NCBI RefSeq assembly: GCF_050320075.1
Contig: NZ_CP190021.1
Length of the DNA stretch: 64,000 bases
Reading direction: 5' to 3' (one strand)
Source of the DNA: Escherichia coli
GTDB taxonomy: Bacteria; Pseudomonadota; Gammaproteobacteria; Enterobacterales; Enterobacteriaceae
Part shown: positions 2,004 to 9,800 of the stretch, one piece after another
Numbering within the stretch: position 1 is the first letter of the stretch
How the letters are laid out: every line of letters starts with the position of its first letter
The notes under the pieces: generated by a model
What the model was told of the DNA's origin: nothing
The model's input: only the letters and a program-made list of their open reading frames with translations
Database searches by the model: none
Made by a program: the position numbers and the translations under genes

Positions 2004-2441
2004 ATGATGAATACCGAACTGACACTGAATGCCCTGCAGTCCATGAATGCCCAGGAATATGAAGAAATCCGTGCTGCGGGAAGCGATATGCGCCGTAATC
2101 TCACTCACGAGGTGATGCGTAAAGTGGACGCACCGGCTAACTGGATGATGAACGGAGAGTATGGCAGCGAGTTCGGGGGCTTTTTCCCCGTCCAGGTTCG
2201 TTTCACGCCAGCCCACGAACGTTTCCACCTGGCATTATGTTCGCCGGGAGACGTCTCTCAGCTCTGGATGCTGGTTCTGGTGAATGGTGGTGGACAGCCT
2301 TTCGCCGTCGTTCAGGTGCAACATATCTTCACGCCTGCCGCGATCAGTCACACGCTGGCGCTTGCCGCGACACTGGATGCGCAGGGATACAGTGTTAACG
2401 ACATCATCCATATCCTGATGGCAGAAGGAGGTCAGGCATGA
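2004..2441 (+). CDS. psiB: PsiB, plasmid SOS-inhibition protein (RecA inhibitor)
   Basis: 145-aa ORF almost colinear with F PsiB as I recall it ([22 protein letters not shown] ... [37 protein letters not shown] ... [17 protein letters not shown]). GGAG RBS upstream. Confidence 0.93.
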
Positions 2442-3157
2442 GCGCACGTTCACGGGCACTGATCCCCCTCAGCGCAGAACAACAGGCCGCCATGCAGGCG
2501 GTGGCTGTCACAGAACAACGTCGTCGTCAGGGACGCACACTTTCAGCATGGCCTTATGCCACCGCTTTCTTTCGCTGCCTGAATGGCAGTCGCCGGATTT
2601 CGCTGACCGATCTCCGCTTTTTTGCCCCTGCGCTGACGAAGGAGGAATTTCATGGCAACCGTCTCCTGTGGCTGGCTGCCGTGGATAAACTGATTGAAAG
2701 TTTTGGGGAAGTCTGTGTTCTTCCCCTGCCATCCGATGCGGGGCACCGTCTGTTCCCGTCCGTGCCTTTTCGTGAAGGTGAGCGTCGTCGTCAGAAAACC
2801 ACGCTGACAGAGCAGAAATACAGCCGCCAGCGGGAACGTGAGGCAGAACGACGGGAACTGGAATACCAGACATGTTTTGCTCAGGCGCAGATTGACCTTG
2901 CGTTTCATACTCCCGCCACGGTCGGAAGCTGGTTGTCCCGCTGGTCTGGTGTTGTTGAGGAGCATGATCTGGAAACGATTTTCTGGGGGTGGTGCGGGCG
3001 TTTTCCATCACTGTCATCATTTGACCGGTTTTTCTGGCAGGAGGAACCACTCTGGCGGCTGATTTTTGAAGCCGGTGAGGCCGGTCGTGGTGCACCGGTA
3101 CAGGTACGTGCACTTGAGCAGTGGATGATCCCGAACAAGCTGGAGAACGTAATATGA
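2438..3157 (+). CDS. psiA: PsiA
   Basis: 239-aa ORF. Its start overlaps the psiB stop (ATGA) and it is in the canonical position after psiB. The length matches PsiA. Confidence 0.85.
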
Positions 3158-3750
3158 TGAAATCAGACGAAAAATACCAGGTTCCCGCGTGGATGCGACC
3201 TCTGTTGCCGTTGCTCTGCAACACCGGGGGGAACGATCCGGAAGAACTGCTGAATGATACAGAAACCACTGCCAGTGCGAATGTTGTCCGTTATGTACTG
3301 ATAGTTGCTGTGCGGTCGCAGGTTGATCTGCTGCAGCTTCTGTACAGGAAAGGGCTGTTGCGCACAGAGATACCAGGTGGCTTTTCACCGGAAGAAGCGC
3401 AGGCACTCCTGGATAATCTGGTGCGCAGCCATATCAGCAAGGCGCTGTCGGGCGAGCGAATGGCAGCCCGTGACAGAAATGCCGATCTGGCCTGGATTGG
3501 ACAGCAACTGGTCGATGACGCCTGGTTTGTCCGTGCCACACTGGAAGCGCATGGGATGAGCGTCGGAAATGAGAGTCCCCCTGCTCCGCCGGAGACAATG
3601 CCGGACATACAGACACGGGAACTGGTGATGTTGATCAAGCGACTGGCATCATCGCTGAAAGCGGTGAAACCGGACAGTTGTGTGGTGCGTGAAGCGCAGG
3701 ACTGGCTGCGCGACAGAAAACTTGTGGATATCACAGATATTCTCCGGTGA
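3154..3750 (+). CDS. conserved hypothetical leading-region protein (198 aa)
   Basis: ATG at 3154 overlaps the psiA stop (ATGA). GGAG lies 8 nt upstream. Clean ORF with no recognisable motif. Confidence 0.6.
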   Translation: MMKSDEKYQVPAWMRPLLPLLCNTGGNDPEELLNDTETTASANVVRYVLIVAVRSQVDLLQLLYRKGLLRTEIPGGFSPEEAQALLDNLVRSHISKALSGERMAARDRNADLAWIGQQLVDDAWFVRATLEAHGMSVGNESPPAPPETMPDIQTRELVMLIKRLASSLKAVKPDSCVVREAQDWLRDRKLVDITDILR

Positions 3751-3927
3751 ACCAGGCATGTATATTTTACGCAGGGACACGCCGATCATGATCGTTTCAT
3801 ATCAGGGGTGGTCTGGAGGTCATGCGGCGTGTCCTCTGCACTCGCCGGAATAAGGAAGTCGCCGGCGGCTCCGCTTTTACCCGGCCATGCGGGGCATGGC
3901 CTTGTGGGGTTTCAGCTCTGTGGCCTC

Positions 3928-4190
3928 AGCGTCGTGTGCGGGCTGTGCCGTGCCTCCATCTTAGCCGGGCTGGCAGGGATGCAAGGGTACGCTTCGCCGC
4001 TGCGGTCACCCGGTCCCTCCTTCCCGTCTGCCGTGATTTTCCGGTCGTTCGTCCGCTCAGGTTTCGCGGCCTCACCCTGCAACTCCCGTCAGCCGTGTGC
4101 GTCAGGCTGCGGCTTCCCTTGCGCCCCTGCATCCCCGCCTTATCGCCCGGCTTTTATGGAGGCACGGCACCGCCCGGTGTCGCAGAACAT
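3928..4190 (+). promoter_or_regulatory. Frpo/ssi-type long imperfect hairpin (candidate single-strand DNA promoter) upstream of ardA
   Basis: GTGCCGTGCCTCCAT (3945-3959) is the exact reverse complement of ATGGAGGCACGGCAC (4156-4170), and the flanking arms pair imperfectly. It ends about 20 nt before the ardA RBS. The GC-rich 'ORFs' here have no coding character. Confidence 0.65.
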
Positions 4191-4211
4191 GTGACTATGG
4201 AGGATTCGGGA

Positions 4212-4712
4212 ATGTCTGTTGTTGCACCTGCTGTATACGTTGGAACCTGGCACAAATACAACTGTGGAAGCATCGCCGGACGCTGGTTTGACCTGACCAC
4301 GTTTGATGATGAGCGCGACTTTTTCGCCGCCTGCCGTGCTCTTCACCAGGATGAAGCCGATCCTGAACTGATGTTTCAGGATTATGAGGGATTCCCGGGG
4401 AATATGGCCTCTGAATGCCATATCAACTGGGCCTGGGTTGAAGGCTTCCGCCTGGCACGGGATGAAGGCTGCGAAGAGGCTTATCGTCTCTGGGTGGAGG
4501 ATACCGGTGAGACGGATTTTGACACCTTCCGCGATGCCTGGTGGGGCGAGGCTGACAGTGAGGAGGCTTTTGCGGTTGAGTTCGCCAGTGATACCGGCCT
4601 GCTGGCTGACGTGCCGGAGACGGTGGCGCTCTATTTTGACTATGAGGCGTATGCGCGGGATTTATTCCTGGACTCCTTCACCTTTATTGACGGTCATGTG
4701 TTCCGTCGGTGA
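4212..4712 (+). CDS. ardA: ArdA anti-restriction protein (type I R-M inhibitor, DNA mimic)
   Basis: 166 aa starting [34 protein letters not shown], which matches ColIb-P9 ArdA as I recall it. Very acidic C-terminal half. GGAGGA RBS. Confidence 0.93.
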
Positions 4713-5080
4713 TTTACTCCCCCGCTCCGGCGGGGGTATGGCCTGCCAGGCCGCCGGAAAACCCTGGCAGGCTTACGCCTGCCTGAAATGCAGGAGGGCC
4801 GCGCCTGCGGCGCTGCCCTTCCTGCCCGTCATGGTGTGAGGCATTTTTCTGTTATGTCGTTTCTGTTGTTCTGATTTCCGGAGGCGGGGACACCTTCGGC
4901 TCCCGGCTGCCTGGCGGCATCCGGTCGTCAGGCCCGACTCCGACAGGCAGCTGCTGGCGCACCCGCCAGTCTCCGCCGAACCCGCTGGCGCGGTTTCGGG
5001 CTGCCGCTACGGTCCGATGTCTGAAAAACCAGGCTTGCAGCGACCGTTCCGGTCGCGCCGCCCCTGTCGCGCCGGAAACG

Positions 5081-5420
5081 GCGCTCCCTGCACACCTGAC
5101 GGTGTGTAAGGCCACTGCGCCTGATGGCGCAGTCAACCCTTCCGCCGCCACCCCTGCGGCCTGTTTCCCGCTGTGGACTTTCCGGGGGCTGGAGTAACCA
5201 CATCCCGTTTCAGCAGTCCAGGGGAAGATATACCGTCCACAAAATTTTTAGCCATAAACCCGGCAAAAAATTTTGCGTCCGCCCCCGGACAGCTGCCCCG
5301 TGACGTGGTGACGGACGCCCCATCGGAAAGGTCCACTGCGGGGAGAAACCCCGAAGAAGTGGACGGCAGAAGGGGCTTTCGCCCCTCCGGGGAGCAACCG
5401 GTCGGCCCGGCGACCTGATT
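5081..5420 (+). repeat. Frpo/ssi-like element, copy A (about 320 bp, homologous to 7959-8300)
   Basis: Blocks shared with copy B: GCGCTCCCTGCACACCT.ACGGTGTGTAAGGCCACTGCGCCTGATGGCGCAG ... GGACTTTCCGGGGG ... CCACATCCCGTTTCAG ... CCCCGGACA.CTGCCCCGTGACGTGGTGA ... CGGAAAGGTCCACTGCGGGGA. Internal long-range complementarity (GGACTTTCCG / CGGAAAGGTCC; CAAAATTTTT / AAAAATTTTG at the apex). Ends at a strong RBS. Confidence 0.7.
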
Positions 5421-5440
5421 CAGCAGAAGGAGACGTTTTC

Positions 5441-5875
5441 ATGACAGTCAGCAGCACGATTTCCGTTTTTTGCCGCGACGGGGTGTTCCGTACCGTTTAC
5501 TGCCACCTGCACGGGGAGCCGACCTGGAACGGTCGCATCCTGCATACCCACTATGCCACCGGTCAGCAGGCCGAAGCCCTGGTTGAACACGGTGATATCC
5601 GTTGCCTCGGTCCCCGTTGCGACAAACCCGCCGGGCATACGCTTCAGAACCCGGTGGACGGTGTGACGGCTTATTACGGACGTGACAGTGGTTTCCGGAT
5701 GGACAGTGAGGCGCGTGAGTACCGTTCTTTCAGGGAGGCTATTGCCACTGAAAGCACTGAAGAGGTGCGCTTCCATTATGTGTTCATCGACGGCTACTGG
5801 AAGGTGATGTACCGCACGCCGGAAGGCTGGAAGATGAAAGCGCTCGCGCTGGCACTGCGTCGCTGTCCGAAATGA
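5441..5875 (+). CDS. hypothetical leading-region protein (144 aa)
   Basis: AAGGAG RBS 8 nt upstream. Lies immediately downstream of Frpo-like copy A. No motif recognised. Confidence 0.65.
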   Translation: MTVSSTISVFCRDGVFRTVYCHLHGEPTWNGRILHTHYATGQQAEALVEHGDIRCLGPRCDKPAGHTLQNPVDGVTAYYGRDSGFRMDSEAREYRSFREAIATESTEEVRFHYVFIDGYWKVMYRTPEGWKMKALALALRRCPK

Positions 5876-5968
5876 AAAAAAGGCAGGGCGATAAACCCTG
5901 CCTCTCTCCGCCGGCGCTTCCCCGCCAGGAAGTCCGGCATCTCAATCACTATCTATGGAGATTATGCC

Positions 5969-6235
5969 ATGAGACCATCAATTATCTTCGCAACCGCCGA
6001 GTATGTAAAGCGTCTGCGTGAAGAGTGCCTGCGGGAGAATAAACCCCTGCACCGCCATACCCGCTTCAGACGTCAGGAGCTGGCACAGGATGAGATTAAC
6101 CCGGACGTCCTGGCGATGAGCGGCCATATCGCCAGACGCTGCAGTGAGCAGAAGCGGGTGCGTATCCCCGCTATGAAAGTCAGCGAATGGGGCCACCTGC
6201 TCCGCGCGCTTGAAATTGAGCGGGTCTGCCACTGA
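5969..6235 (+). CDS. hypothetical protein (88 aa)
   Basis: GGAG RBS and a basic protein. No family recognised. Confidence 0.45.
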   Translation: MRPSIIFATAEYVKRLREECLRENKPLHRHTRFRRQELAQDEINPDVLAMSGHIARRCSEQKRVRIPAMKVSEWGHLLRALEIERVCH

Positions 6236-6299
6236 TTAACCCTTGCCGTCTGCCTGTGCAGGCGGCAGGATACGTTCAGACATCTCACCAGGAGGAACC

Positions 6300-7238
6300 G
6301 TGAGTCAGAAGAAAACCACCACGACGCCCACGCCGCATGATGCCGCGTTCCGGTCGTTCCTGGCGAATCCCGACGTCGCCAGAGATTTTCTGGAACTGCA
6401 TCTTCCGGCGGAGTACCGGCAGTTGTGCGACCTGTCCACGCTGAAGCTGGAACCCGCCACCTTTGTTGAGCCGGACCTGCATCAGTACGCCAGCGATATC
6501 CTCTGGAGTGTGAAAACCACCGGGGGTGAAGATGGCTATGTTTATACGCTCATCGAGCACCAGAGCACCGAAAATCTGTACATGCCTTTCCGCATGTTAC
6601 GTTACAGTGTGGCGGCGATGCAGAGACATCTGGAGCAGCACAAAACGTTGCCACTGGTGATTCCTGTACTGTTCTATCATGGTGAGCGCAGCCCGTACCC
6701 GTACAGCATGAACTGGCTGGACTGTTTTGAGAATCCGGCACTTGCGGCTAAAATATACACAAAGCCGTTTCCGCTGGTTGATATCACTGTCGTTGATGAC
6801 AATGAAATCATGAACCATCGCCGGATGGCCGCACTGACGCTGCTGATGAAGCATATCCGCCATCGTGACATGATGGAGCTGCTGGACAAACTCCCGCAGG
6901 TCATGGTGGAAATTTCAGACGAGCAGGTGCGTGTTCTGATTCATTACATCGTTAACGCAGGGGACTCTGTATCACCGGAATTTATGCGGGCGCTGGCTGA
7001 GCGTCTGCCGCAGCATGAGGATAAACTGATGACTATCGCAGAACGTCTTGAGCAAAAAGGTCGCCAGGAGGGCAGGATGGAAGGACGCATGGAAGGACGC
7101 ATGGAAGGACGCATGGAAGGAGCGCTTGAAAAAGCCCTGGCTATTGCGTGCCAGCTTCAGAAAATGGGGATGACGCCGGAGCAGATTAAGCAGGCTACCG
7201 GACTTTCCGATGACGAACTGAAGAAAATCACTCACTGA
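6300..7238 (+). CDS. Rpn family recombination-promoting nuclease (YhgA-like, PD-(D/E)XK); full-length 'RpnL'
   Basis: GTG at 6300 follows GGAGGA. N-terminal signature PHDAAFRSFL...DFL..HLP ... SDILWSV ... Y.L.EHQS ... MPFRMLRY ... PLVIPVLFYHG is typical of RpnA-E/YhgA-like proteins. Confidence 0.85.
   Translation: MSQKKTTTTPTPHDAAFRSFLANPDVARDFLELHLPAEYRQLCDLSTLKLEPATFVEPDLHQYASDILWSVKTTGGEDGYVYTLIEHQSTENLYMPFRMLRYSVAAMQRHLEQHKTLPLVIPVLFYHGERSPYPYSMNWLDCFENPALAAKIYTKPFPLVDITVVDDNEIMNHRRMAALTLLMKHIRHRDMMELLDKLPQVMVEISDEQVRVLIHYIVNAGDSVSPEFMRALAERLPQHEDKLMTIAERLEQKGRQEGRMEGRMEGRMEGRMEGALEKALAIACQLQKMGMTPEQIKQATGLSDDELKKITH
7029..7238 (+). CDS. predicted intragenic small protein (RpnS-type antitoxin, 69 aa) in frame within rpn
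   Basis: In-frame ATG at 7029 with GAGGA 8 nt upstream. It starts exactly where the free-standing paralog (7300-7458) starts (MTIAERL.QKG). It encompasses the EGRM repeat. Confidence 0.45.
   Translation: MTIAERLEQKGRQEGRMEGRMEGRMEGRMEGALEKALAIACQLQKMGMTPEQIKQATGLSDDELKKITH
7068..7124 (+). repeat. 12-nt tandem repeat (GAAGGACGCATG, about 4.7 units) encoding (EGRM)n
   Basis: Read directly: gagggcaggatg gaaggacgcatg gaaggacgcatg gaaggacgcatg gaaggagcg. In frame inside rpn. Confidence 0.95.
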
Positions 7239-7250
7239 GTAAACATCACA

Positions 7251-7275
7251 GCCCGGCAAAATGCCGGGCTTTTTT
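7251..7275 (+). terminator. intrinsic terminator after rpn
   Basis: GCCCGGC-aaaat-GCCGGGC followed by TTTTTT. Confidence 0.8.
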
Positions 7276-7299
7276 GTCAGCAGGAGCAGAGCAAATAGC

Positions 7300-7458
7300 A
7301 TGACGATTGCAGAACGTCTTATTCAAAAAGGCGCACTTGAAGTGGCGCGGGAAATAGCCTGCCGGCTGCGGGATATGGGCTGGACGCCGGAACGGATTCA
7401 GGAGGCAACCGGACTTTCCGGTGAAGAACTGAAAAAGCTGTTTCCTGATGAGCAGTAG
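7300..7458 (+). CDS. stand-alone RpnS-like small protein (52 aa), paralog of the Rpn C-terminal domain without the EGRM repeat
   Basis: MTIAERLIQKGALEVAREIACRLRDMGWTPERIQEATGLSGEELKKL aligns with Rpn residues MTIAERLEQKG-(EGRM)n-ALEKALAIACQLQKMGMTPEQIKQATGLSDDELKKI. GGAG lies 13 nt upstream, which is suboptimal. Confidence 0.55.
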   Translation: MTIAERLIQKGALEVAREIACRLRDMGWTPERIQEATGLSGEELKKLFPDEQ

Positions 7459-7488
7459 CCTGGCATTCAGCCAGGCTGTGAATCACGC

Positions 7489-7740
7489 TCACACATCCTC
7501 TGCCGTTTCCCCCAGTTCATTTTCCAGTCGCCTGATGATATCTGCCTTACGCATCCCCTGCATGTGAGGCAGCAGGTCACGGACTGAAAGTGCCTGGGTG
7601 GTCCTCCAGACGGTGACGTCCACCTGTTCCGCATTTTCCCAGGCGTGCCATGTTCTCTGCGTCACGCCAAATTCTCTGGCCGCTTTTTCGCGTGACCAGA
7701 GCATGCTTTTTCGCCAGATTCGCAGTTCCCAGCCGGTCAT
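7489..7740 (-). CDS. small XRE/Cro-like HTH regulator (83 aa), the only minus-strand gene between psiB and the Frpo-B copy
   Basis: HTH-like segment REKAAREFGVTQRTWHAWE. Twin palindromes lie directly upstream. Confidence 0.65.
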   Translation of the reverse strand: MTGWELRIWRKSMLWSREKAAREFGVTQRTWHAWENAEQVDVTVWRTTQALSVRDLLPHMQGMRKADIIRRLENELGETAEDV

Positions 7741-7754
7741 AAAACACCTTTGAA

Positions 7755-7842
7755 AAAGTGAAAAAACTTCACTTTATTTTATCATCACAATTGCCAAATC
7801 AGCGCGATAAATAAGTGTAAAAAAGTGAAGAAATTTCACTTT
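7755..7842. promoter_or_regulatory. two 21-bp palindromic operator-like sites AAAGTGAA-N5-TTCACTTT
   Basis: 7755-7775 (aaagtgaa aaaac ttcacttt) and 7822-7842 (aaagtgaa gaaat ttcacttt). Centres are 67 bp apart, in the AT-rich gap between the HTH gene and Frpo-like copy B. Confidence 0.7.
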
Positions 7843-7958
7843 TTTTGCTTGTAAATGTCGTGCGGTTTTCTCTGTTTTCACCTGTGCGGGAGTGGTGTGC
7901 CAGTGACCACCACATGCCATTGTTGTGCCGTCGTTTTTCTTCAGTCGCGCCGTATGCG

Positions 7959-8300
7959 GCGCTCCCTGCACACCTTACGGTGTGTAAGGCCACTGCGCCT
8001 GATGGCGCAGCTGTCTCTGCCTGTCTGCCGCCGCACTGCGGCCTGTTCTCCGCAGACGGACTTTCCGGGGGTACATACATGACCACATCCCGTTTCAGTC
8101 GTCCAGGGGGGAGATGTACCAGCCACAAAACTTTTTGCCGCAGGCGTCAAAAACTTTTGCGTCTGCCCCCGGACAACTGCCCCGTGACGTGGTGAGCGTC
8201 CCCCGTCGGAAAGGTCCACTGCGGGGAAATCCCCGAAGACCCGGACGGCAGAAGGAGCTTCGCTCCTCCGGGAAATGACCTGGCTGTCCCGGCAGTCGTG
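7959..8300 (+). repeat. Frpo/ssi-like element, copy B
   Basis: Homologous to 5081-5420 (see copy A). Ends at the AGGAG RBS of the next gene. Confidence 0.7.
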
Positions 8301-8319
8301 ACGATGAGGAGACAATGTG

Positions 8320-9168
8320 ATGAATCAGACTTTACCCACTGCTGACCTGAATACTGCCGGCACGACAGATGTTATTCCGTCTGTGGCTATCGACCGCATC
8401 ATCGCGCAGCGTAACGAAGGTATTGCACTGTTCATGCAGGCGATGGAATGCCTGGCGACAGCGCGCAAGATTCTGCTCGATGCGTCAGGTGATATTTTTC
8501 TTTACGGGTTTGAAGACTGCGTGACTGATTCCGTTCGTCGCATAGATAAACCGGAAGAAGCGAAAAGGAATATCACCCGTCTTGCCGACCGGAAAATCTG
8601 GGACCGCCTGATGACAGATACGGGCATGTACACCTTCATGAGTTCATGCCAGCGTGATGAGTGGAACAGCCAGCTGATGAGCGACACCTGTCCTGAAATC
8701 ACCCTGGACAATGTACTGGCAACATTCCGCCATCTGAATGCCTGCAAGATGCAGACATTTGAACAGGGACTGATTGATGTCTACCGGAAATTGTCATGGG
8801 ATTACAGAACCAATAATCCCTGCCGTCTGGGTAAGAAAATCATTATTGAAAACCTGCTGTACCGCTGGAGTAACGGGCGTGTGACGCTGGACTGCAGCGG
8901 ACGGGAGGCACTGGATGACCTGGTACGTCCGTTTTATCTGCTGGAGGGGCGCAACGTTCCTGACTTCAGGAACAGTATCGGGGCGCAGTATGGTGAATTT
9001 CTCGGGAACGGCGACAATGTCGGTAAGCTGTTAGAAGGGGAATATTTTACGGTGCGTGGCTACCAGAAAGGGACCGTACACATTGTCTTTAAGCGTTCTG
9101 ACCTTGTTGAAAAACTGAATGATATTATTGCACGGCATTATCCAGGTGCATTGCCGCCACGAGTCTGA
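8320..9168 (+). CDS. conserved hypothetical leading-region protein (282 aa; possibly DUF4942-like, from memory only)
   Basis: AGGAG at 8306-8310. A GTG at 8317 or ATG at 8320 could be the start. Immediately downstream of Frpo-like copy B and followed by a terminator. Confidence 0.65.
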   Translation: MNQTLPTADLNTAGTTDVIPSVAIDRIIAQRNEGIALFMQAMECLATARKILLDASGDIFLYGFEDCVTDSVRRIDKPEEAKRNITRLADRKIWDRLMTDTGMYTFMSSCQRDEWNSQLMSDTCPEITLDNVLATFRHLNACKMQTFEQGLIDVYRKLSWDYRTNNPCRLGKKIIIENLLYRWSNGRVTLDCSGREALDDLVRPFYLLEGRNVPDFRNSIGAQYGEFLGNGDNVGKLLEGEYFTVRGYQKGTVHIVFKRSDLVEKLNDIIARHYPGALPPRV

Positions 9169-9179
9169 TTAAACAGAAA

Positions 9180-9210
9180 AGCCCTGGTATTTATGCCGGG
9201 GCTTTTTTTT
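9180..9210 (+). terminator. intrinsic terminator
   Basis: AGCCCTGG-tatttatg-CCGGGGCT (one mismatch) followed by T8. Confidence 0.75.
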
Positions 9211-9253
9211 CTGTAATCATCATAATCTCAGAACACGATGTGACATTGTCACA

Positions 9254-9595
9254 TCAATTGTTGTTCATATCGATGCCATCTTTCCTGCCTGAATCTGTCT
9301 TTTTAGGTGCTGTTTTAGAGGAAGAACGGCGGGATGGTTTTTTCGATTCTGCTTCCCGAATAATGTCACGAAGTGCCTTCTCTCCTACTTCATACCCTGC
9401 ATTTTTGAGCGTGTCACGAACATCTGCCAGTGTATAACCCTTTGTCCTTACCAGGACAATAATGTCATCACGAATGGCATCAAGAAAATCACGCAATGTT
9501 TTCCGTTGAGCGGTGAGATCTGGCAATTCCGATAAAGCAGCTTTTGCCAGCTGGATGTCATCATCTGAGTAAAATTTTTTAGAAGCCATTGGCAC
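9254..9595 (-). CDS. hypothetical protein with Lys/Ser-rich basic tail (113 aa), adjacent to oriT
   Basis: Clean ORF with GGAGAG upstream of the GTG start. The C-terminus KKPSRRSSSKTAPKKTDSGRK suggests nucleic-acid binding. Function unknown. Confidence 0.55.
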   Translation of the reverse strand: MPMASKKFYSDDDIQLAKAALSELPDLTAQRKTLRDFLDAIRDDIIVLVRTKGYTLADVRDTLKNAGYEVGEKALRDIIREAESKKPSRRSSSKTAPKKTDSGRKDGIDMNNN

Positions 9596-9738
9596 TTTCT
9601 CTCCGTTTCATGTTGAAGTCTGATTTTATCATCAAAAACTGACTCCTGGCAGGGCTGCGCCCTGCCTCTGCCGTCTGCATAAGACTATGATGCACAAAAA
9701 TAACAGGCTATAATGGCCTGAAAAACGGGACAGGATGT

Positions 9739-9800
9739 GCAATTGTATAACCGCGCACGCGCGATTATACAATTGCCTCCTGGTCAGGGCTTCGCCCCGA
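9739..9800. other. oriT: oriT core (17-bp inverted repeat plus adjacent nick region)
   Basis: GCAATTGTATAACCGCG (9739-9755) versus CGCGATTATACAATTGC (9760-9776) is a 17-bp inverted repeat with one mismatch, followed by CTCCTGGTCAGGGC directly upstream of nikA. This matches the published description of R64 oriT as I recall it. The exact nick position is not determinable here. Confidence 0.75.

Follow-up and report, generated by a model that had tools for sequence, protein, structure and literature searches.

Previously Described Single-Stranded DNA Promoters of IncI Plasmids Probably Drive ardA and Two Little-Known Operons in an Escherichia coli Leading Region

Introduction

Promoters that operate in single-stranded DNA (ssDNA) give a plasmid an anti-defence burst of expression before the host reacts, and they are central to the establishment of resistance plasmids in new hosts. 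Homologues of the Frpo and ssi elements are widespread in leading regions (PMC11541004), and both Frpo1 and Frpo2 of F are required for early expression (PMC9849209). The elements of ColIb-P9 have been described from 1999 onward (Bates et al. 1999). Wen et al. 2025 (PMC12672017) reported six ssDNA promoters in pESBL, with start sites for all six from rapid amplification of cDNA 5' ends (5' RACE) and up to ~500-fold induction of leading genes by RNA sequencing (RNA-seq) at 15 min into mating. Three classes were defined in that study: class 1 comprises ssi1-3 and F Frpo, class 2 the ardA and klcA hairpins, and class 3 the M.EcoGIX hairpin. A class 2 element was independently found and named Frpo3 (PMC13478746), and a preprint reports that ssp2 of F stalls the replisome, and with it second-strand synthesis, at the stem end until UvrD resolves the hairpin (10.64898/2026.01.09.698686). 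Here, we compare with these systems a 64,000-nt stretch of Escherichia coli DNA (contig NZ_CP190021.1, assembly GCF_050320075.1), called the window below, in which long hairpins lie upstream of ardA, a gene for a 144-aa protein and a gene for a 282-aa DUF4942 protein. We conclude that these hairpins are very probably the published IncI ssDNA promoters, driving ardA and two little-known operons on entry into the recipient.

For ColIb-P9 and for pESBL (2025), the elements, where they lie and how they work have already been published, and the locus adds no new biology in these respects. Homology, folding, strand bias and covariation were analysed here; recipient transcription and start sites are taken from the pESBL papers.

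Results

Many plasmids of Salmonella and E. coli match positions 2004-9700 of the window with 100% identity; they are typed as IncI and have MOBP/MPF_I transfer systems. The gene order matches that of pESBL-EA11 and ColIb-P9. Judged by its sequence, this region is the portion of a typical IncI leading region proximal to the transfer origin (oriT). The oriT core and the three elements upstream of the genes named above lie as follows.

9730-9776, minus strand: oriT core, read from sequence, with the predicted nick CATCCTG/T between 9731 and 9730 and an 18-bp inverted repeat at 9739-9776
7942-8270, minus strand: ssi1, class 1 (Frpo-type) ssDNA promoter, nearest oriT; core hairpin ~8022-8252; assigned by homology and fold
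5064-5389, minus strand: ssi2, class 1 (Frpo-type) ssDNA promoter; core hairpin 5137-5374; assigned by homology and fold
3851-4204, minus strand: class 2 ssDNA promoter unit (ssp2, or 'Frpo3') upstream of ardA; main stem 3919-4189; assigned by fold, homology and covariation

The identity of the elements was established by comparison with the reference Frpo/ssi sequences tabulated in Samuel et al. 2024 (PMC11541004). The segment 5064-5389 is 99.7% identical to ColIb-P9 ssi2 over 326/326 nt, and the match of 7942-8270 to ColIb-P9 ssi1 is 98.8% over 329/329 nt. The corresponding pESBL copies are 100% identical for ssi2 and 98.7% identical for ssi1, and ssi1 and ssi2 each match F ssiD across the apex at 74%. 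Within the window, the ssi2 copy (5066-5391) and the ssi1 copy (7944-8272) share 81.5% identity over 335 nt, in agreement with an initial annotation of this DNA that had noted two homologous copies of about 320 bp. These matches place ssi1 and ssi2 in class 1. That annotation had called all three hairpins Frpo/ssi-type, which holds for these two and fails for the hairpin upstream of ardA: the latter shows no detectable similarity to the ssi1 and ssi2 copies by sequence comparison. Its relatives are instead the pESBL ardA copy (98.7% identity), the pESBL klcA copy (95%) and F ssp2 (93.8%), and positions 3851-4192 match Frpo'4 at 84% identity over 345 nt. By homology, then, the ardA hairpin is a member of the class 2 / ssp2 / Frpo3 family, separate from the Frpo/ssi type.

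The transferred strand can be read from two features. The sequence CATCCTG/T at 9730/9731, which we take to be the IncP/IncI-type nick consensus, lies with the rest of the oriT core just upstream of nikA. In AJ238399, a record of the ColIb-P9 leading region, ssi1 occupies 1459-1787 and ssi2 occupies 4353-4678, and these match the minus strand of the window at 8270-7942 and 5389-5064. Because the two elements align at those coordinates, position 1 of AJ238399 corresponds to about 9728 in the window; from the predicted nick, ssi1 is 1.46 kb and ssi2 4.34 kb distant. Since the nick motif and the spacing of the ssi elements in AJ238399 agree, the minus strand is assigned as the transferred (T) strand, and genes on the plus strand would take it as their template. 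The gene orientation thus fits transcription from the incoming T strand, as had been proposed.

Folding of the minus strand as ssDNA, with z scores calculated against 100 shuffles per region, affords stable structures at all three positions. The ardA element (3900-4200) folds with -77.7 kcal/mol (z = -6.0), the ssi2 region (5040-5440) with -119.5 kcal/mol (z = -8.4) and the ssi1 region (7920-8316) with -110.4 kcal/mol (z = -8.4); in each case, 0/100 shuffles were as stable. When the whole 64 kb was scanned in sliding 300-nt segments with correction for GC content, the segments at ssi1 and ssi2 held ranks 1 and 2, and the ardA element was likewise a clear outlier. The three long imperfect hairpins of the initial annotation are therefore real, and the intervals given for them lie close to those measured. 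The structures favour the transferred strand by 7-15 kcal/mol. The ardA element folds with -77.7 kcal/mol on the minus strand versus -70.2 on the plus strand (a difference of 7.5), ssi2 (5064-5389) with -102.9 versus -90.6 (12.3), and ssi1 (7942-8270) with -100.6 versus -85.3 (15.3). Class 1 elements have 6-7 G-T pairs on the minus strand and 0-3 on the plus strand (7 versus 0 for ssi2). A G-T pair turns into an A-C mismatch on the opposite strand, so selection on the T strand would be expected to produce a minus-strand bias of this kind.

Base pairing is also supported by covariation. When the class 2 copies from the window, from IncI plasmids and from F are aligned with three divergent metagenomic homologues, 23/73 pairs show compensatory change as compared to 9.0 +/- 2.3 in shuffles; 0/500 shuffles reach 23, and controls in which the pairing partner was slid give 2-7 compensatory pairs. 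For class 1, compensatory change was found in 9/118 predicted pairs among three paralogues. The features that stay constant across the IncI and IncF copies of class 1 are an apical A/T-rich helix, a 9-nt bulge in the 3' arm (GTnnAnnT) and the sequence CCC(C)TGGAC, which sits in a perfect GC-rich stem.

Each element is placed directly ahead of a gene on the correct strand. For ardA, the stem base is at 4189, the ribosome-binding site (RBS) GGAGGA at 4199-4204 and the ATG at 4212; the open reading frame (ORF) of the 144-aa protein has its RBS at 5428-5434 and its ATG at 5441, and the DUF4942 ORF has its RBS at 8306-8312 and its ATG at 8320. Across the three elements, 10-37 nt separate the hairpin from the RBS, so the short distance to a strong RBS stands, with the earlier figure of 20-40 nt revised. 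A promoter scan found no sigma-70-like duplex promoter upstream of ardA or the 144-aa gene; on the DUF4942 side, the nearest sigma-70-like duplex site is >500 nt upstream, beyond ssi1.

Candidate promoter boxes were located from structure and alignments, and the exact hexamers given here are predictions.

3979-3984, minus strand: putative class 2 -35-like TTGCAT on the 3' (non-template) arm, within paired stem; TTG is invariant in six divergent homologues
3958-3963, minus strand: putative class 2 -10-like TAAGAT, 15 nt downstream of TTGCAT, with its central three bases unpaired
5215-5220, minus strand: putative class 1 -35-like TGGACT in ssi2, fully paired; part of CCC(C)TGGAC, which is invariant in IncI and IncF copies
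5191-5197, minus strand: candidate class 1 -10, either TTACTC or TACTCC, located 17-18 nt past TGGACT and after TGTGG inside an internal loop with mismatches; placed from structure and alignments

In class 2, the alignment shows a conserved -10 pattern, TAnnnT, that appears as TAAGAT, TAAGGT and TACAGT. On the 3' arm, 15 nt separate the boxes; on the template arm, the spacer is 19 nt. As a duplex, the plus strand reads CTGCAT-N19-TTTTAT, a poor promoter, so the element would be active as a hairpin and silent after second-strand synthesis. Because the boxes lie on the 3' arm, the gene-distal arm would be the non-template strand. The ardA transcript is predicted to start near 4164, with a leader of ~48 nt.

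In class 1, TGGACN is the best candidate for a -35-like hexamer, and the A/T helix appears to occupy the position of an UP element. In ssi2, a conserved 9-nt bulge (5225-5233) and the A/T-rich UP-like helix (5238-5249 / 5262-5276) lie upstream of TGGACT. The -10 is a weak match, and we place it with low confidence. Transcripts would start near 5321-5322 for the 144-aa operon and near 8205 for DUF4942, with leaders of ~115-120 nt. Two other placements were considered. Use of the 9-nt bulge as the -10 puts the -35 in the apical loop and fails for metagenomic homologues without the A/T helix, and is retained as no more than an alternative. A promoter on the F ssiD 5' arm, TTGAGA-N17-CATACT, was rejected, as the F reference reads CATCAC and the ColIb-type elements do not have the site. 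The deposited F ssiD sequence (D90178, Samuel et al. Supplementary file 4) reads GGGGCATACTGCC where the F reference has CATCAC, so promoter boxes taken from that older entry may fail to apply in the reference. In Samuel et al. (PMC11541004), the Frpo2 construct that works is truncated on the partner arm.

These data are consistent with the following scheme. The minus strand would enter the recipient 5' to 3' from the nick near 9730, and three non-coding segments would fold on it into hairpins that host RNA polymerase uses only while the DNA is single-stranded. ssi1 would drive the DUF4942 gene, ssi2 the operon of 144-aa, 88-aa and Rpn-like genes, and the class 2/ssp2 hairpin (~3851-4204) ardA. 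In each, the gene-proximal arm would serve as template and the far arm would carry the non-template -35 and -10, with stem mismatches making promoter elements that the duplex form does not have; second-strand synthesis would thereby erase the promoter and end the burst. psiB and psiA would form a fourth such operon, its promoter, ssi3, lying just outside the window. That such hairpins act as ssDNA promoters on entry, as had been suggested for this DNA, is borne out by the equivalent elements in pESBL, which are reported to be active by RNA-seq and 5' RACE (PMC12672017).

A further conserved feature adjoins the ssi2 hairpin, on its 3' side on the T strand.

4889-5085, no strand assigned: non-coding, GC-rich, near-invariant block of ~190 nt, found by alignment and BLAST; wider structured region 4713-5065

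The block is near-invariant in four contexts, namely the IncI spacer between ardA and the 144-aa gene, a divergent IncI-like plasmid, the region upstream of ssi3/ssb, and the region upstream of an F-type Frpo on an IncF plasmid. Across IncI and IncF plasmids, it is more conserved than the adjacent hairpins, which diverge; in the F plasmid itself, only ~41 nt is kept. The block has no Rfam match and folds modestly, and a small ORF within it is not conserved. Covariation analysis gave no signal, the copies being nearly identical. It could, for example, be a T-strand priming or loading site, or an insulator at which the upstream operon ends.

The genes around the three elements are listed below.

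2004-2441, plus strand: psiB, SOS inhibitor (Pfam PsiB, E = 2.9e-57, 193 bits; annotated psiB in identical plasmids)
2438-3157, plus strand: psiA (Pfam PsiA, E = 1.4e-41, 143 bits)
3154-3750, plus strand: 198-aa hypothetical ORF 3' of psiA, from annotation; weak PHROG matches, unknown function
4212-4712, plus strand: ardA, antirestriction protein (Pfam ArdA, E = 2.8e-29, 103 bits)
5441-5875, plus strand: 144-aa cargo protein, first gene after ssi2
5969-6235, plus strand: 88-aa hypothetical ORF of the ssi2 operon, annotated in identical plasmids
6300-7238, plus strand: Rpn/YhgA-like nuclease-family protein (Pfam Transposase_31, E = 1.6e-78)
7489-7740, minus strand: 83-aa helix-turn-helix (HTH) regulator, the main gene facing away from oriT, from ORF list and annotation
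7774-7971, minus strand: 65-aa hypothetical ORF, annotated
8320-9168, plus strand: 282-aa DUF4942 protein, sole gene of the ssi1 operon (Pfam DUF4942, E = 2.4e-50)

An identical plasmid is annotated in the order ParB-like gene, psiB, psiA, 198-aa ORF, ardA, 144-aa ORF, 88-aa ORF, Rpn-family gene, short ORF, opposite-strand HTH gene, DUF4942 gene, MobC-like gene, nikA and nikB. The scores of ArdA, PsiB and PsiA are each well over the Pfam gathering score, which upholds their earlier identification. Nine genes lie on the plus strand and one or two on the minus strand; the statement that all genes but one point toward oriT is thus correct for the plus-strand majority and slightly too strong for the rest. 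The template of the 83-aa HTH gene is the complementary strand, and this gene could therefore be expressed only once the second strand is synthesised. Between the HTH gene and ssi1 (7742-7846) are two palindromes, AGTGAA-N5-TTCACT, the first of which is overlapped by a sigma-70-like plus-strand site, GTGAAA-N16-TATCAT (7758-7785). This site could be an HTH-controlled duplex promoter directed toward DUF4942, providing a second, late mode of expression.

The initial annotation had treated psiB and psiA as part of an island driven by the three hairpins. However, psiB, psiA and the 198-aa ORF are served by none of them. In related plasmids, ssi3 is followed by ssb, the ParB-like gene, psiB and psiA, and ssi3 precedes position 1 of the window. 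The window carries three of the six known IncI ssDNA promoters; the other three, ssi3 included, precede position 1. The 198-aa ORF has no match in Pfam or PADLOC. ColIb-P9 has a TnpB-family gene in its place (3377-4552 of its sequence), and pESBL keeps the 198-aa ORF; this replacement makes the interval from psiA to the ardA hairpin a variable one.

The 144-aa protein, in which two His and one Arg, H22, H66 and R81, are invariant, is named 'post-segregation killing protein PndC' in several database entries. That name is unsupported by its sequence, size or predicted fold and looks like a carried-over annotation error. Family searches returned no match for the 88-aa ORF. The Rpn-like gene contains a short MEGR-coding tandem repeat (7057-7121) and is followed on its 3' side by an intrinsic terminator-like hairpin, with its stem at 7250-7270 and a T-run a few bases past. 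Another 65-aa ORF, at 7261-7458, begins within this hairpin and is a partial duplicate of the C-terminal end of the Rpn-like gene (7029-7238), which it matches at 75% identity along 109 nt and at 84% along 32 nt. The DUF4942 gene likewise has a terminator-like hairpin with a T-run on its 3' side (~9178-9212). Its product has close homologues throughout Enterobacterales. It also matches a phage family labelled 'DNA methyltransferase', phrog_6263, over that family's N-terminal half (E = 5.5e-17); this goes no further than suggesting an accessory role connected with DNA. An AlphaFold2 model of the protein is of good quality, with a predicted local distance difference test (pLDDT) score of 84.7, and has no meaningful match in the PDB. 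ColIb-P9 encodes a DUF4942 protein as well as 144-aa and 88-aa proteins identical to those of the window, all at equivalent places, and Wen et al. 2025 (PMC12672017) noted that many induced leading genes have unknown function.

Discussion

The assignment of the three hairpins as the published IncI ssDNA promoters is one we hold with high confidence, and several observations weigh against it. The transcription evidence comes from the pESBL copies, from which the ardA element and ssi1 differ by ~1.3%. The initial annotation expected -35 and -10 hexamers within the stems. Class 2 affords such a pair, TTGCAT-N15-TAAGAT, whereas in class 1 the boxes are only proposed: T-strand scans for the consensus, whether strict or relaxed, gave zero sites in ssi1 and ssi2 with at least 8/12 matches. 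The candidate class 1 -10 region is poorly conserved between the paralogues, and placement of the -10 in the 9-nt bulge is kept as an alternative for this class.

The strongest competing explanation is that the hairpins act mainly in DNA processing, by priming the complementary strand or, for class 2, by forming a roadblock that delays conversion to duplex, with mRNA synthesis being secondary. Priming is the original meaning of 'ssi', and the earliest description of Frpo was as a promoter for primer RNA (PMC7736820, summarising Masai and Arai 1997). Moreover, F ssp2, to which the ardA hairpin is 93.8% identical, is reported to stall the replisome until UvrD acts (10.64898/2026.01.09.698686). 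However, priming or delay is compatible with a promoter role, and the same studies show hairpins driving downstream genes. The position of each element in the window, 10-37 nt ahead of a strong RBS and on the correct strand, is that of a promoter for the adjoining gene, and roadblock activity has been demonstrated only for the F copy, which lies upstream of an ArdB/KlcA-like gene. A role mainly in DNA processing is accordingly possible but, in our view, unlikely. It is highly improbable that the elements are ordinary features of duplex DNA or RNA (intergenic palindromes, terminators, insulators or structured 5' leaders) without an ssDNA-specific promoter role: they are GC-rich intergenic repeats that would fold as RNA too, and the conserved non-hairpin block beside two of them leaves part of the conservation unexplained by a hairpin, but G-T pairs, which turn into A-C mismatches in the plus strand and in mRNA, make the minus strand 7-15 kcal/mol more stable, Rfam contains no family matching the hairpins, no T-run follows their stems as an intrinsic terminator needs, and the pESBL copies, 98.7-100% identical, have published start sites and ssDNA-dependent induction (PMC12672017).

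With the hairpins read as ssDNA promoters, the pairing of hairpin copies with uncharacterised cargo genes, previously singled out as the special feature of this locus, is the standard ColIb-P9/pESBL arrangement. The interest now lies in the function of the strongly early-driven cargo (DUF4942, the 144-aa family and the Rpn-like protein) and in the role of the invariant flanking block. The joint proposal that the block at 4889-5085 is an undescribed part of the promoter unit and that DUF4942 and the 144-aa protein, which would be the first proteins produced after entry, are new anti-defence or establishment effectors is speculative, and we consider it rather doubtful as a whole.

The window elements compare with described systems as follows. 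One comparison for class 2 is Frpo'4, from an insect-gut metagenome, which has the conserved boxes in common with the window element but belongs to a different host element and is listed by Samuel et al. 2024 only as a candidate. F ssp2/'Frpo3' and the klcA and ardA hairpins of pESBL have the same long hairpin and the same conserved TTGnnn-N15-TAnnnT on the 3' arm as the window copy; the latter precedes ardA, whereas the F copy precedes an ArdB/KlcA-like gene. For class 1, F Frpo1 and Frpo2 are alike at the apex in the A/T-rich helix, the conserved bulge and CCCCTGGAC. What F Frpo and the window elements have in common is confined to this apex (~80 nt, 74-80% identity) and ~41-53 nt of the 3' flank, and the lower stems of F Frpo are unrelated to those in the window. 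The closest systems are ssi1 and ssi2 of ColIb-P9 and their counterparts in pESBL, which are alike in position relative to oriT and in their downstream genes, and from which nothing material differs.

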